Source: Sphyrna mokarran (lineage: Eukaryota). From it: 64,000 bases of DNA. Below, in pieces: positions 20,617 to 54,660 of the stretch. The notes beneath the pieces were generated by a model. The model was not told where the DNA came from. It searched no databases and was given only the letters and a program-made list of their open reading frames with translations. Made by a program: the position numbers and the translations under genes. Position 1 is the stretch's first letter. Each line of letters begins with the position of its first letter. The stretch is taken from positions 65,906,001-65,970,000 of the forward strand of contig JAGIQG010000002.1 in NCBI GenBank assembly GCA_024679065.1, written 5' to 3'.

Positions 20617-20940
20617 GGGAGGCACAATGCATAGTGGTTAGCACTGCTGCTTCACATAGCCAGAGACCTGGGTTCAATTCTGACCTTGGGTCACTGTCTA
20701 TGTGGAGATTGCACATTATCCCTGTGTCTGCATGGGTTTCCTCTGGATACTCCGGTTTCTCCCACAGCACAAAGATGTATGGTTACGTTGATTGGGCATG
20801 GTAAATTGCCCTAGTGTCAGGGGACTAGCAAGGTAAATATGTGAGGTTGGGGAATAGGGCCTGGGTGAGATTGTGGTTAGTGCAGACTCGATGAGCTGAA
20901 TGGCCTGTTCCTGCCCTGTGGGGATTCTGTGATTCTATTA
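20617..20940 (+). mobile_element. V-domain tRNA-SINE, CR1-type tail
   Basis: tagtggttagcactgctgc...gggttcaattc head, V core, tail gctgaatggcctg...gggattctgtgattcta. Confidence 0.85.
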
Positions 20941-27925: not shown

Positions 27926-28067
27926 AAGGTGGTGATGAATTGGTGCTGGGGGGAGAAAGTCAGGGGTGAGGACAGGAGTCTTTGAGACCTCCATGACGAG
28001 CTGGGGGAAGACTTATACATGTTCTAATTGGAGCACTCTTTAAATATGGTGTACTGATCTCTATGCA

Positions 28068-28154
28068 GCCTAAAAAAAAATCAAGGTGGTGTGTTTCAAG
28101 CCATTATTCAGCACATTATTGAAACACATCACCTTGATTTTTTTTTTTTTAGGC
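28068..28154. repeat. Long inverted repeat / hairpin
   Basis: GCCT(A)9TCAAGGTGGTGTGTTTCAA - 19 nt loop - TTGAAACACATCACCTTGA(T)13AGGC. Confidence 0.85.
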
Positions 28155-29064
28155 AATGTTATAAGATCTGGAGAGAAAATCAGTGTGTTTCCCTCAACAC
28201 TTTGCCAAACACTTTGCCATTTTGTAGTAACGTTTCCCCAGTGAGTTGATTTGATTGGAAGCCCTTGTAATTCAAAATGTGGCTATTTTGTTAGGACGCA
28301 GGTGCTGAACTAGCTGCACTGCAGAACCATGTTTGACATTGAAAAAGCAAATATTTGCTGAAGCACTATTAAATTCCAAGTTGGGAGAGGCCCTTTTCGT
28401 AGGTTTAAGTTTTTCTGCACAGATCAATGTGCAGCTTTTATCATTTTTATTTGGGGAATTTGGTGTACTCCGGAACTTACCAGCTAACAAAGGAATATAC
28501 AACATTACGGACTGAAAAGATGGAGTTTGGGAAGAACAGAGTTTGAAAAAAAAATGTACTATTTAATGTATTTAAACCTGAGGATTTGGTAATTTATATA
28601 ACAGAGTAATATATTCTGTAAACCAATTAAATGAAATCAATTAAAAAATGTCACAGAAAGATGCATCTAGAGTAAGCCTGTAGTGTTGAAGCTCACATCA
28701 TCCATTAACAATCATAGTGTATGATTACATTAATAGGATTGGAGCTCATTAAAGCTGTCTCCTTGAAGCTTGTTATTTGAACCTGTTCAGCAATGGCATT
28801 TGCTTAATCATCCTATCACTGTATTGCTATAGCACTGAAGGAAATCATTTGATCTGTTGTGTCTATGCTGGCTTTCCAAATGAGCAATTCATTTAATGTT
28901 ATTTTCTCATCGCCTCTGTATCATGCTTCCTTTTCAGAATATTATATTCCTTTTATTTCAATGAGCCTAATATTGTTTTGAAGCATAAAATATATTTCTC
29001 CACATTTGAGAATTTGAATTTTTATTATGTTTACTGATTTAATCATATGTTTTTCATTCTTTAG

Positions 29065-37045: not shown

Positions 37046-37677
37046 ATAAAGAAGGCATACGGAGTCTTAGCTTTTATTGGTAGGGGGATTGAATTTCGGA
37101 GCCGCAACGTCATGTTGCAACTGTACAAAACTCTAGTGCGGCCGCACTTGGAGTATTGTGTGCAGTTCTGGTCCCCACATTATAAGAAAGATGTGGAGGC
37201 ATTGGAGAGGGTACAGAGGAGGTTTACCAGGATGTTGCCTGGTATGGAGGGCAGGTCTTATGAAGAGAGGCTGAGGGATTTGAGGTTGTTTTCGTTAGAA
37301 AGGAGGCGGCTAAGAGGGGACCTTATTGAAACATATAAGATGATTAGAGGTTTAGATAGGGTGGACAGTGATAGCCTTTTTCCTAGGATGGAGAAAGCTA
37401 GCACGAGGGGACACAGCTTTAAATTAAGGGGTGATAGTTATAGGACGGATATCAGAGGTAGGTTCTTTACCCAAAGGGTGGTTAGGGAGTGGAATGCCCT
37501 GCCTGCAGCAGTTGTAGATGCGCCAAGTTTGGTGGCGTTTAAGAGGTTAGTTGATAAGTTTATGGAAGAGAAGGGAATGGTTTAGTTTGGAGGGTCATTG
37601 CTTTTTATAATGGTCGGCACAACATCGAAGGCCGAAGGGCCTGTTCTGCGCTGTAATGTTCTATGTTCTATGTTCTA
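37046..37677 (+). mobile_element. Young CR1 LINE 3' end (intact ORF2 C-terminus)
   Basis: ORF 37112-37585 [19 protein letters not shown]...FFTQRVVREWNALP; tail (tgttcta)3. Confidence 0.92.
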
Positions 37678-38254: not shown

Positions 38255-40680
38255 ACAGTGAATAACTCAGCACAGGAAACACACCTAACGAGCCCACGCC
38301 ACCATTTTAACATTCCCACTTCTACCCATGACCCTTGTCTATGTTTATGGAAATCTGTATTGGAACTTAATTGGGGAGCACATCTTTGGGATGTGGGAGC
38401 ACCCAGAGAAAACCCACGCAAGCACACGGAGAATGTGCAATCTTCCACAGATACCGGCCCAAATCCCTGTATCTGCACAGCAACAATGATAGCCACTGAG
38501 CTGTTGTGTTGCCTATCAACTGGTCCAGTTTAAGCATACACTAATGATGTGAAGCACAAGGCTACTCTCTCAAAATCCAAGAGCAGCCCTCTCATGACCC
38601 ATTGCGTGTATGCTCCTTGTTGGACAACAAGGCGGACCGAAGTACCTGTAATAAAAGAGAAATAAGTCAATAACATGGACAACTTATGCAATTCTCAGGA
38701 ATGTCCCAAGGCTTATGATCCCTATTTAAATCAGTCTTCTATATCTTTCCATCCCTATTCCACTCATATGCCTAAGTACCTCTTAAATAACTCCAGCATG
38801 CCTGCCTCCACCACCTCACTTGGCAGTGCATTCCATACTCCCACAACCCTCTGTGCGAAAAACCTCCCTCTAACATCCAAATTATACCTTGCCCCCTCAC
38901 CCTAAGCCCATGACCCCTCGTGATATTTGATTCCAACCTAGGAAAAAGCTTACCACTGTTCACTCTATCTATACTCTATCTATACCTTTCATAATCTTGT
39001 ACAACTCTATTAGATCTCCTCTCAGTCTCCGTCTTTCTAAAGAAAACAGCCCGAATTTGCATACCCTTTCTCGTAACCCAGTCCTTCCATGCCAGGCAGC
39101 ATCCTGGTAAACCTCCTCTGCACTCTCTTCAGGGTCTCCACGTCCTTCTGGTAGTAGGGCGACCAGAACTGGACGCAGTATTCCAAATGAGGTCTAACCA
39201 ATGTTCTATACAACTGCAACATTAAATGCCAGCTCTTCCACTCTATACCCTTTCCTATAAAGGCTAGCATACTATAAACTTTCTTCACAACCTTCTTCAC
39301 CTGTTCTGCCACCTTCAGAGACTTGTTCACCTGCACCCCCAGGTCCCTCTGTGTTTCTATACTCTCAATAAGTCTACCCTTTATCATATCACTCTCCCCT
39401 ACATTCTTTCTCCCGAAATATATCACCTCGCATTTGCCAGGATTAAATTCCATCTGCCATATATCTGCCCAATCTATCAGCCTATCTATGTCCTGTTGTA
39501 TTGCCCAACATTGCTCCTCGCTATCCGCAAGTCCAGCCATCTTTGTGTCATCTGCAAACTTGCTGATCACTCCACTTACTCCCTCTTCCAAGTCATTTAT
39601 ATAAATAACAAATAGAAGAGGTCCCAGTACTGAGCCCTGCAGCACATCAGTAGTGACCGACCTCCAGCTAGAAAAACATCCTTCCACTACTACTCTGTCT
39701 CCTATTACCAAGCCAATTATTTATCCATCTAGATACCTGTCCTTGTATTCCATTAGTCTTGACCTTTTTAACTAACTTCCCACGAGGGACTTTGTCAAAG
39801 CCTTACTGAAATCCGTATAGACGACATCAACGGCTCGCCCTTTGTCCACTGTTTTTGTCACCTTCTCAAAAAATTCTACCAGATTTGTAAGGCACGACAT
39901 CCCTTTAACAAAGCCATGCTGCGTATCCCTAATCAGATCGTAACTCTCTAACTGCCTATATATCCTACCTCTAAGAATCCCCTCCAACAGCTTCCCTACC
40001 ACTGACGTCAAACTCACCTGCCTACAATTTCCAGGGTTATCCCTACTACCCTTTTTAAACAATGGTACAACATTAGCTATTCTCTAGTCCTCTGGGACCT
40101 CACCTGTGTCCAAAGAAGAGACAAAGATTTGTGTCAGAGGCCCAGCAATTTCACCTCGTGCCTTCCTAAGCAGCCTAGGATAAATGCCATCAGGCCCTGG
40201 AGATTTATCAGTTTTAATGCTACCTAGAAGCTCTAACACTTCCTCCCTTGCAATGGATATTTCCCTCAACTGGTCTTCAGTTCCGTCCAAGACAGTACCG
40301 GTCAACAAACCCCTCTGCTTTGTGAATACTGATGCAAAGTATTCATTCAGGATCTCCCCCATTCCCTCAGACTCTAAGCACAGTTCCCCTCCTCTGTCCC
40401 TAAGAGGACTGATTTTTCCTCTAACCATCCTTTTATTTTTAACATAGGTGTAAAAAGCCTTTGGATTTTCCTTAATCCTGTCCGCCGAAACCATTTCATG
40501 CCCCCTTTTTGCCCTTCTAACTCCTCGTTTGAGCTCTCTCCTACTCTCTCTATATTCTTTCAATGCTCTCTCCATTCCCAGTTGCTTAGACCTAACATAC
40601 ACCTCTCTTTGCTTCCTAAACCAAGTCCTCAATATCCCTAGTAATCCACTGCTCTCTAATCCTACGTTACCCATCCTTTC
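38255..40680 (-). mobile_element. CR1 LINE (5'-truncated) with extended chimeric 3' region
   Basis: RT ORFs 39037-39711 (QGSVLGPLLFVIYIND, KFADD), 39772-40062 and 40084-40674; 3' region contains a V core. Confidence 0.92.
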
Positions 40681-41639
40681 TGAGAATAATTAATCAAATT
40701 AGAAAATGCTCCTTGCAATGAAACAGCAGATTACTTTCAAATTAGTATTTTGATATGGAAACCAAACACCCATCAGCTGACTACTTTATGAAATGTCTTT
40801 ATTTGGTTCACACGAGTGGCTTTGAGCTTCCAGTCACACATTGTTTTAATTCTAAGCCCTTTTCCCACTTTGACATTATTGTCCTTGACCTGCAGAAGCA
40901 TTCCAATGAAGTTCAATGCAAGTTCAAGGAACAACTTTATCTTTCGACTAGGCACGTTACAGCTTTCCGGTTCAATGTCATATTCAGCAATTTTAGATTG
41001 TAATCTCTTCCGTTTTATATCCATTTGTTGTTAGTTTTGTTTTCTCTTTGTGCTTTTGTATTTTCCCAGATGACAACTGTTTATAATTCTCCATTCATAT
41101 CTCCTGTAGGCCTGTAATTTGTTTCTTTCCTTGTTCCATTGCTGCTTCATTTGGCCTTGCACTATGAGCTCTTTTATGAGTTTGTTTCTCCTGCCTTCCA
41201 CTCTATGACATAACTTCCCTTTTGTCCTTTTTAATCCTCTTTTCCCAACCCCATCCCTGACTTGACTTGCTTAAAATCTAAATTGTGTCGTATCTAACAG
41301 GACATAGACCTGAAACATTAGCACTATTTCTCTATTCACAGATGCTATTAGATCAGCTGTGTATTTTCAGCACGTTTTTTTTCTTATTCCAGATTCCAGG
41401 CATGTGCAGTAGTTACTTTGGTTCAAAAAGACCACACAACTGCATTTATATAATGCCTTTCATAATCGCTGGATGCCTCTGCTTTAGTTTTAAAGAACGC
41501 TAATGAAGAGTCATCCTGATTCAAAATGTTGACTCAATTCTCTCTCCACAGATTCTGTCAGACCTGCTGAGATTTTCTAGCATTTTCTGTTTTTATTTCA
41601 GATTCCAACGTCCGCAGTAATTTGCTTTTATACTTTTAA

Positions 41640-48993: not shown

Positions 48994-49198
48994 ATCCCCA
49001 GCTGATGCAATGCACAAGTGTCCTGAGTTCCACTGGTATGTTCTTCATTAAAATGGCACGTCTGCAAGTCCTCCTGAATTCTGTTTACGATGATCCATCA
49101 CGGATAGTTACGATGATCCATTGCTATTTTCAAGTAATGGAAATACCTGCCGCAACTGCATATTTGCCTATTCCTAGCTTCTGGATCCAACCTCCGGC
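48994..49198 (+). repeat. Copy 1 of a near-identical 205-bp direct duplication
   Basis: Matches 50775-50981 except for a 2-bp indel. Confidence 0.95.
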
Positions 49199-50774: not shown

Positions 50775-50981
50775 ATCCCCAGCTGATGCAATGCACAAGT
50801 GTCCTGAGTTCCACTGGTATGTTCTTCATTAAAATGGCACATGTCTGCAAGTCCTCCTGAATTCTGTTTACGATGATCCATCACGGATAGTTACGATGAT
50901 CCATTGCTATTTTCAAGTAATGGAAATACCTGCCGCAACTGCATATTTGCCTATTCCTAGCTTCTGGATCCAACCTCCGGC
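50775..50981 (+). repeat. Copy 2 of the near-identical direct duplication
   Basis: Matches 48994-49198 except for a 2-bp indel. Confidence 0.95.
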
Positions 50982-51157: not shown

Positions 51158-53160
51158 ACAAAGAACAAAGAACAAAGATCAACACAGCACGGGAAACAGG
51201 CCCTTCGGCCCAATGAGCCCGCTCCGCCGTCCTAACGTCTTAATGACATATAGAGACCAATATAGGGACAATTTGTTACCCAATCAGCCTAAGAGCACAT
51301 TTTTGGGATGTGGGAGGAAACCGGAGCACCCGGAGAAAACCCACGCAACCACGGGGAGAACGAGCAAACTCCCGCAGACACAGGCCCAAATCCATGTGTC
51401 TGCACAGCAACAGACATAGTCTCTGAGCTGTCATGTTGCCCATCTGATGGTCCAGTTTAAGCATACACTAACGACATGAAGCACAAGGCCACTCCTGAAG
51501 TAACATACAAGAGCAGCCCTCGCACGACCTGCCGAATGCATGCGCCTTGTTGGTCAACAAGGTGGACCGAATAGCCTGTGGAAACAAATAAAGTATTTAA
51601 ACAGTCCTCCTATATCCCTCTATCTGCAGACTGCTCATGTGTCTGTCCAAGAGACCCTTAAACAACCCTAGCGTGCCTGCTCCCACCACCCCACTCGGTA
51701 GTGCATTCACCCCCACTACCCTTTGTGTGAAAAAATGCCCTCTAATATTCATCTTATACATAGCCCCCCTTACCCTAAGGCCGTGACCCCTCATTCTATC
51801 CGATTCTAATGGTGGAAAAAGCTTACCACCATTTACTCTATCTATACCCCTCATAATCTTATATACCTCTAATAGATCCCCTCTCAGCCGACGTCTTTCA
51901 AGGGAAAACAACCCCAGTGCATTCAATCTTTCCTCGTAAGACAGCCCTTCCATACCAGGCAGCATCCTGGTAAATCTCCTCTGCACTCTCTCCAGGGACT
52001 CCACATCCTTCCGGTAGTACGGCGACCAGAACTGGACGCAGTACTCCAAGTGAGGCCTAACCAACGTTCTACAACTTGCAACATCAAACTCCTACTCTTG
52101 TATTCTATACCCCTTCCTATGAAGGCTAACATACCATACGCTTTCTTTATCACTTTCTCCACCTGTACTGACACCTTCAGAGACTTGTGAACCTGCACCC
52201 CCAGGTCTCTCTGGTCTCTATACTCCGGATAGTTTTACCTTTTATCCTATAACTCCCCTCTACATTATTCCGGCCAAAATGCATCACCTCGCATTTATCC
52301 GGATTAAATTCCATTTGCCATCTATCTGCCCAATCTACCAGCTTATCTATGTCCTGTTGTATTGCCTGGCACTGCTCCTCAGTCCCCGCCAATCCAAGCA
52401 TCTTAGTGTCATCAGCAAATTTGCTGATCACACCACTTACCCCCTCTTCCAAGTCATTCATATAAATCACAAATAGAAGAGGTCCTAGTACTGAGCCCTG
52501 TGGCACACCACTAGTAACTGACCTCCAGTTGGAAAAAGAGCCTTCCACTATTACCCGCTGTCTCCTCCTCCCAAGCCAGTTCTCAACCCATCTACATACC
52601 TGGCCCTGTATCCCATGCGCCTTCACCTTTTCTATCAGCCTACCATGAGGGACCTTATCAAACGCCTTACTGAAATCCATATAGATGACATCAACGGCTT
52701 GTCCTTCATCAACCGTTTTTGTCACCTCTTCAAAAAATTCCACTAGATTCGTAAGGCACGACCTCCCCTTAACGAAGCCATGCTGCGTATCCCCTGATCA
52801 GATCACAGCGCTCCAGATGCTCATACATCCTGTCCCTGAGGATCCTCTCCATTAGCTTACCTATAACTGAAGTCAAGCTCACCGGCCTATAGTTCCCTGG
52901 ATTATCCCTCTGACCCTTTTTAAACCGGTACTACATTTGCAATCCTCCAGTCCTCTGGGACCTCACCTGTGTCCAAAGAAGAGACAAAGATTTGCGTCAG
53001 AGGCCCAGCAATGTTATCTCTCACCTCCCTTAGCAGCCTGGGATAAATACTATCAGGCCCTGGGGCTTTATAAGTCTTTATGCTACCTAAAAGCCCCAAC
53101 ACTTCATCCCTCGTAATGATTATTTCCTTTAACGGGTCCTCAAAATCCTCAAAGCCTCAA
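51158..53160 (-). mobile_element. Young CR1 LINE with chimeric 3' region and 8-bp TSD
   Basis: RT ORFs 52177-52743, 51923-52198 and 51597-52064; tail (tctttgt)n; AGAGATTT at 51150-51157 and 53161-53168. Confidence 0.92.
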
Positions 53161-54344: not shown

Positions 54345-54660
54345 CTGAGCAGTGGTTAGCACTGATGCCTCACAACGCCAGGGAGCCAGGTTCAATTCCG
54401 GCCTTGGGTCACTGTCTATTTGAAGTTTGCACATTCTCCTTGTATATGCATGGGTTTCCTTCGGGTGCTCCAGTTTCCTCCCACAGTCCAAAGATGTGCA
54501 GGTTGGGTTGATCGGTCATGCTAAATTGGTGGTATTGTCAGGGAGAATTAGCAGGGTAAATGTGTGGGATTATAGGAATAGGGTCTGGGTGGGATTGTTG
54601 TCGGTACAGACTTGATGGACCGAATGGCCTCCTTCTGTACTGTAGGGATTCTATTATTAT
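54345..54660 (+). mobile_element. V-domain tRNA-SINE, CR1-type tail
   Basis: gcagtggttagcactgatgcctcac...ggttcaattcc; tail ggaccgaatggcctccttctgtactgtagggattcta. Confidence 0.85.

Follow-up and report, generated by a model that had tools for sequence, protein, structure and literature searches.

Structured RNA elements and splicing in retroelements

LINE splice sites are usually regarded as accidents that kill copies. In human L1, spliced RNAs have been retrotransposed with exact donor-acceptor joins; the available text of PMC5860796 describes these SpIREs as rare intra-5'UTR or 5'UTR/ORF1 events that arise by drift and are likely dead ends. The CR1 LINE family described here resembles them in the retrotransposition of spliced RNA, the exact joins, the rarity and the likely dead-end fate of the products. 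It differs in having its acceptor downstream of ORF2, with both ORFs inside the intron, and in the persistence of this acceptor, alongside an unclassified three-arm fold and a SINE core, across many subfamilies.

Retroelements with intron-retaining RNA use structured export elements after the last stop codon, such as the MusD MTE and the LINE-1 3' element (PMC4588558, in the text available), and the CTE route (MPMV/NXF1) works in fish (PMC4338338, likewise). The fold, too, is a predicted RNA structure downstream of the last stop codon and short of the 3' end, in an element whose genomic RNA retains an intron. It differs in being a putative export element, in showing no common sequence motif in the comparison made, and in lying just 3' of an acceptor, which places it in spliced RNA as well.

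Another relevant class comprises the tail stem-loops of ZfL2-type stringent LINEs, which are also conserved cis RNA structures in a LINE 3' UTR but consist of a small terminal hairpin bound by ORF2 protein (PMC4176376, partial text). The three-arm fold, by contrast, is 120 nt long and ends about 290 nt short of the 3' end, in a family that possesses a tail hairpin besides. HE1 V-SINE/HER1 of sharks and rays is similar in combining a tRNA-head SINE, a conserved core and a tail common with a CR1-type LINE (PMC3747384, partial text). In the present family, however, the SINE body sits inside the LINE UTR, has lost its B box in all but one subfamily and has the fold in front of it, which the free SINEs of the same stretch of DNA do not. 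The function of the V domain is open according to the consulted portions of PMC4824008 and PMC6887750.

Spliced retrocopies (L1, PMC5860796) and structured 3' elements of several retroelements are thus already known. In the literature searched, no description was found of an acceptor after ORF2 kept with a fold, although Repbase or Dfam may hold the family; the available text of a CR1 survey (PMC13343379) mentions neither splicing nor structure, and its supplements may hold the family. The new evidence consists of spliced retrocopies that show use of the acceptor in older subfamilies. Splice-coupled control, if true, would not have been described for CR1 elements before.

The host element and its copies

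The window is a 64,000-nt stretch of the Sphyrna mokarran genome (GCA_024679065.1, contig JAGIQG010000002.1, positions 65,906,001 to 65,970,000). It holds two copies of the family, with the following features on the minus strand, in window coordinates:

51158..53156, minus: 5'-truncated copy of a young CR1 LINE subfamily, the host element (identity to family copies)
51597..53156, minus: 3' portion of ORF2, disrupted in the host copy, ending in the TAA stop 51599-51597 (RVT_1)
51576..51596, minus: polypyrimidine tract followed by the 3' splice site, whose AG is 51577-51576 (sequence; CAG/G conservation)
51569..51575, minus: 7-nt linker and exon start (G, three very variable letters, UUC)
51563..51568, minus: P1 5' strand (folding and pairing analysis)
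51545..51562, minus: P2 hairpin, 7 bp with a 4-nt loop, deleted in one lineage
51461..51543, minus: long arm with P3, bulged middle, P4 and variable loop
51543-51536 with 51468-51461, minus: P3 within the long arm
51519-51506 with 51499-51486, minus: P4 within the long arm
51455..51460, minus: junction strand UUAAAC, unchanged in 8 majority sequences, changed in two sub-lineages
51449..51454, minus: P1 3' strand
51255..51441, minus: tRNA-head SINE remnant, B box lost, conserved core
51158..51220, minus: CR1 3' tail, short hairpin and microsatellite end
38260..40681, minus: second, older 5'-truncated copy, ORF2 stop 38728-38726, AG 38647-38646
38522..38638, minus: second copy of the three-arm fold (fold and model search)

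The host copy is 95% identical, from 53156 onward, to a near-full-length young copy (L408) and 94-98% identical to 29 others. Its reverse transcriptase domain is recognizable at 52180-52797 (RVT_1, E 5.6e-29), and an intact 915-codon ORF2 frame with the same stop occurs in copy L112. An ORF2 with reverse transcriptase, 5' truncation and a microsatellite 3' end are features of CR1-group LINEs, and the ORF1 translation presumably resembles the esterase-type ORF1 of that group. Both window copies are dead and 5'-truncated, and the fold there is a relic.

An earlier sequence-only reading had found the fold in two copies only. An exact 21-mer from its 3' side gave 8,188 genome matches (control 0) and a P1/P2 pattern gave 5,966, placing the fold in a family with over 8,000 copies. 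No outside source was found: the exact motif is absent from the metagenome and viral contigs searched. In sense order, the elements carry the ORF2 stop, a spacer, the polypyrimidine tract, CAG/G, 7 nt, the fold, 7 nt, the promoter-less SINE remnant, a variable stretch and the CR1 tail. The fold had been placed right after ORF2; it does lie in the 3' UTR, but a spacer and a 3' splice site intervene. Two neighbors of the fold, each 7 nt away, had been overlooked: the splice site on its upstream side and the SINE body on its downstream side.

At the other end of the element, the 5' UTR can be a tandem of ~190-nt units (5' ends of L128, L335 and L337). Every unit contains a splice donor and, ~30 nt ahead of where the leader starts, a TATA-like box. 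Such tandem units recall monomer promoters.

The predicted three-arm fold

P1, P2, P3 and P4 were found where they had been proposed, at 51449-51568 of the minus strand. This piece folds at -54.5 kcal/mol with z -5.03, a stability matched by 0 of 200 shuffles, and its plus strand has z +0.32. The second copy at 38522-38638 reaches -49.3 (z -5.13) on the minus strand; here the plus strand also scores z -4.14. A fold model run over the 64-kb window recovered only these two copies, the next best match scoring 16.9 bits. A long A/T-rich inverted repeat at 28043-28168, a hairpin on both strands, is a weak model match unrelated to the fold.

As isolated 117-120 nt pieces, all eight subfamily majority sequences adopt the identical topology as their minimum-energy fold, with z -2.1 to -6.2 in sense versus +0.7 to -3.3 in antisense. 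The free energy improves along the young lineage, from -48 to -59, and the P3 pair A28-U106 is A-C in older majority sequences. Within the whole UTR, P1 competes with other pairings and the fold is less certain than as an isolated piece; P1 has a probability of 0.99 in the window's subfamily and of 0.0-0.8 in the six others analyzed. A pairing between P2 and the SINE head was also considered and rejected, being possible in some subfamilies and broken in others.

Conservation across subfamilies

Copies were grouped by the upstream spacer or, within the first 100 pattern matches, by diagnostic marks. This gave the older groups A, B, C and O (22-30 copies each), E and G (4 each), Y (30) and Y2 (7). 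Majority sequences left out 13 partial copies and two misplaced ones, and the yardstick was divergence at four-fold sites of ORF2, taken over its last 300 codons.

Across majority sequences, the fold has diverged about three times less than the four-fold sites. A and Y differ at 14/120 positions of the fold and 30/93 four-fold sites (p 3e-4), O and Y at 17/117 and 30/96, and A and B at 1/120 and 20/103. For the close pairs E-Y, G-Y and C-O, fold and four-fold sites were not significantly different. P1, P2 and the junction together show one change in 32 nt where 10 are expected. The spacers flanking the block differ by 12-45% where alignable, and in all 10 pairwise comparisons the spacers on both sides diverged like four-fold sites and the block did not. 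Just upstream of the fold, the three linker letters flanked by invariant CAGG and UUC vary widely in state.

Divergences of spacer, SINE and tail delimit a constrained unit of ~300 nt that consists of the fold, the SINE head and the SINE core, with the fold as its first module. Since SINE head and core are conserved equally or better, the target of selection may be some other portion or feature of the block. Overall, the three-arm fold is probably a selected RNA structure.

Covariation and natural variants

Covariation of the stems is modest to weak. By our own classing, a pair is preserved or created in 12 of the 16 lineage-level changes that fall in stems; with three changes of O sub-lineages added, the figure is 14/19, or 14/20 if A at position 93, which is also A in young copies, counts as a loss. 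Five to six lineage-level changes break pairs. Private mutations are pair-keeping in 50% of cases, and the lineage-level excess has p 0.03-0.06. Some of the differences between the two window copies, which the sequence-only reading had compared, are private decay (51507, 51485).

Two pairs changed stepwise on both sides, G39-C93 to A-U and C47-G85 to A-U. The latter passed through A-G, and U85 occurs in 15/68 copies with A47 and in 4/137 with C47, these copies being related and not independent. Among 25 real copies, the covariation score lay above 500/500 shuffles, a control that ignores relatedness; pairs with two-sided change numbered 4 versus 3.0 in shuffles, a value reached by 168 of 500.

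The junction strand, earlier described as invariant, reads UUAAAC in 193 of 241 full-length copies. UUGACC (16) and UUGAAC (13) mark sub-lineages. Inspection by eye suggests a possible pairing of this UUAAAC strand with GUUUA(A) at about 51603-51597, which precedes the AG by ~25 nt. Subfamilies A, B, E, G and Y would allow it, and C, O and the lineage that has lost P2 would not.

P2 is cleanly missing in 60 copies, of which 53 have one linker mark in common (loci L275-L324). Of the 30 examined first, 29 are joined to ORF2, at a distance of 0-4% to the lineage's own majority sequence (9% for one 66-nt piece). In 19 of 20 longer pieces there is no common indel or stop over 900 codons, the first half being covered by 4-5 copies, and the ORF2 of this lineage appears intact. 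These data point to a source without a three-way junction that copied itself, at ~1% of the family, and the ~53 copies from this one lineage contradict a strict need for three-way geometry.

A used 3' splice site after ORF2

CAG/G is present in all majority sequences, with a pyrimidine share of 0.71-0.94 upstream. The spacer between ORF2 stop and acceptor measures ~20 nt in the window's subfamily and about 80-165 nt in older ones, and spacer deletions always left the last 20 nt before the AG. Predicted accessibility of the AG varies without pattern across subfamilies.

Full-length 5' ends start with a ~44-nt leader followed by the donor TG/GTGAGT, with a TATA-like box further inside. A direct leader-exon pattern gave 12 genome matches (control 1), and 10 of these are retrocopies at separate loci in which 12-44 nt of leader are joined exactly to the acceptor. 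In five of the 10 clear copies the leader measures 40-44 nt and reaches the element's 5' end. Eight of the 10 show the family tail; they belong to C- and O-type subfamilies, and the leader variant fits the subfamily. A pattern with altered AG context gave 81 matches, and the 48 inspected include a leader-exon join in three clear and two short cases. The splice removes ~4,080 nt, both ORFs included. Exact GT-AG joins in retrotransposed copies, the hallmark of SpIREs, are thus found in family members elsewhere in the genome and not in the window copies. The 3' UTR acceptor is real and was joined in vivo to the 5' leader donor in older subfamilies.

Loci L393-L404 (e.g. L394, L396, L403 and L404) are ~500-nt spliced retrocopies with both ORFs gone; they have no internal TATA-like box and look like dead ends.

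Microhomology deletion was rejected as the cause of the joins. Although 3-4 letters are common at the join, 88 such 3-mers lie upstream, and the 10 clear joins all use the one canonical donor despite these alternatives. Other joins to ORF2-like sequence numbered only two (L132, L147). A strong donor before ORF1 in L128 was likewise discarded, as it is private to that copy and used by 0 of 19 purine-preceded AG joins. A peptide encoded by the exon was dismissed too, no long reading frame being common to all subfamilies.

In the young lineage, the leader donor is GTGAGA or lost in three of three copies (L408, L412, L118), and a second, strong donor lies shortly before the ORF1 start. No spliced young-lineage copy was found among the pattern matches, and these patterns are blind to joins after CTG. 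As the spliced copies all come from older subfamilies, use of the acceptor in the window's own subfamily is presumed by extension.

The SINE body and the CR1 tail

We take the SINE remnant to be V-SINE/HE1-like, with HER1 as partner LINE. Its B box is intact in subfamily B only (1/7 majority sequences), the A box is degenerate, and the window copies do not have a head with both A and B boxes. Head and core start of subfamily B are 73-76% identical to three free tRNA-head SINEs of the window. These related SINEs, at 1815-2122, 20623-20934 and 54349-54658, carry A and B boxes and no fold. Between majority sequences, SINE head and core differ by 3-12%, and from old to young subfamilies they have changed less than the fold. 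The SINE head stays conserved despite loss of the B box, as at 51441-51255 and 38515-38376 of the window, and a new hairpin is predicted there. Among six majority sequences, the CR1 tail shows 0/38 changes. This invariant 3' tail is a likelier site of RT recognition than the fold.

Possible functions of the fold

Low divergence relative to four-fold sites and spacers, together with modest pair-keeping, supports the original proposal of a functional cis-acting RNA, with the exception of its ribozyme and nuclease-block variants. In our analysis, the leading reading is a non-catalytic cis element that acts in splicing or in export of intron-retaining RNA, to which we give a rough probability of 0.4. 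A used splice acceptor beside the fold points to nuclear RNA processing. Production of ORF2 protein and copying in cis are open only to unspliced LINE RNA, and a family whose RNA keeps a usable intron would therefore need a damped acceptor or an export route. The fold would open the last exon of the CR1 transcript, 7 nt after the acceptor, and might help unspliced full-length RNA to escape splicing or nuclear retention. Its position from last stop to 3' end equals that of known export elements (PMC4588558, partial text). Because the P2-less source still copied itself, the long arm, and not the junction as such, would carry most of the function. One 5-letter loop motif of the CTE (NXF1) is absent on the sense strand, which is a weak test. 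Nearness to the acceptor may only reflect joint capture of fold and splice site, and persistence of the fold in the young lineage with its decayed leader donor speaks against a nuclear role. That persistence, like the free energy that improves in the same lineage, favors a cytoplasmic role, namely RNA stability or binding of ORF1/ORF2 protein in particle assembly. The fold would then be part of the 300-nt block with the SINE core and the splice site a separate matter. The conservation data fit this equally well, but P2 is dispensable, stringent LINEs bind a small tail stem-loop (PMC4176376, partial text) and the family has its own invariant tail; we regard such a role as conceivable, if rather unlikely. 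A bolder form of the splicing idea, which we consider doubtful, is that the coding region is kept as a removable intron and that structured exon and acceptor form a switch between full-length mobile RNA and a 500-nt non-coding RNA.

It is improbable that the fold is a passenger, an intron end plus folded exon captured with the SINE, whose low divergence reflects recent block recombination among subfamilies or avoidance of harm. Weak covariation, the P2-less lineage, the junction changes, the competing folds in long context and the rarity of spliced copies, which recalls L1 splicing accidents (PMC5860796, partial text), all suit that idea. It is hard to reconcile with flanking spacers that diverged like four-fold sites around a block that did not, with the freely varying linker letters inside invariant surroundings, and with spacer deletions that left the acceptor intact. 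Alternatively, the spliced ~500-nt RNA of leader, fold, SINE body and tail could itself be the selected product, for example a decoy or self-brake with the fold as head domain. An acceptor kept through all subfamilies, exact joins in several of them and an exon without a conserved long reading frame would be expected of such an RNA, and if non-coding RNA is copied poorly in trans, as we suppose, few copies may hide much RNA. However, only 10-12 copies were found and the donor decayed in the young lineage, and we consider this product quite improbable.

Least probable of all, and very improbable, is a new self-cleaving ribozyme, an exonuclease block or a microRNA precursor formed by the long arm. 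A compact three-way fold with an A-rich junction would suit the former, and the best loose Rfam match pairs the arm with mir-3188, at 25.2 bits versus a gathering score of 93. The Rfam search of the window otherwise returned nothing at gathering score and nothing credible at a loose E-value threshold. The hammerhead ribozyme core consists of CUGANGA and GAAA around three stems. As already stated in the sequence-only reading, hammerhead and HDV consensus motifs are lacking: the sense strand has no hammerhead core in 7/7 majority sequences and no Rfam match, and the other core motifs looked for are absent from it too. For an HDV-like ribozyme there is likewise no Rfam match and, by inspection, no conserved upstream partner strand, and the junction strand varies. 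The 5' ends of 100 copies, selected through the 3' 21-mer, do not pile up at or in the fold. Twelve end inside it at scattered places, 0.12 per 100 nt compared with 0.01-0.15 in ORF2 upstream, an ORF2-like rate. Cleavage at this place would separate the tail from the ORFs, but RNAs of both kinds, full-length and spliced, have been copied uncut. The ribozyme and nuclease-block options thus find no support. Likeness to pieces of 5S rRNA and the HCV IRES was rejected because of different pairing roles and no Rfam support.

The family supplies natural mutants in its P2-less lineage, junction variants, B-box loss and donor loss. Together with a reporter design that is at hand, they make it possible to test what the fold does and what the V domain does in an RNA.

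Other repeats in the window

A more distant CR1 ORF2 fragment of ~70% identity lies in opposite orientation at 37046-37503 on the plus strand. In addition, 48994-49198 and 50775-50981 form a 205-nt direct repeat with 99% identity, 1.8 kb apart.
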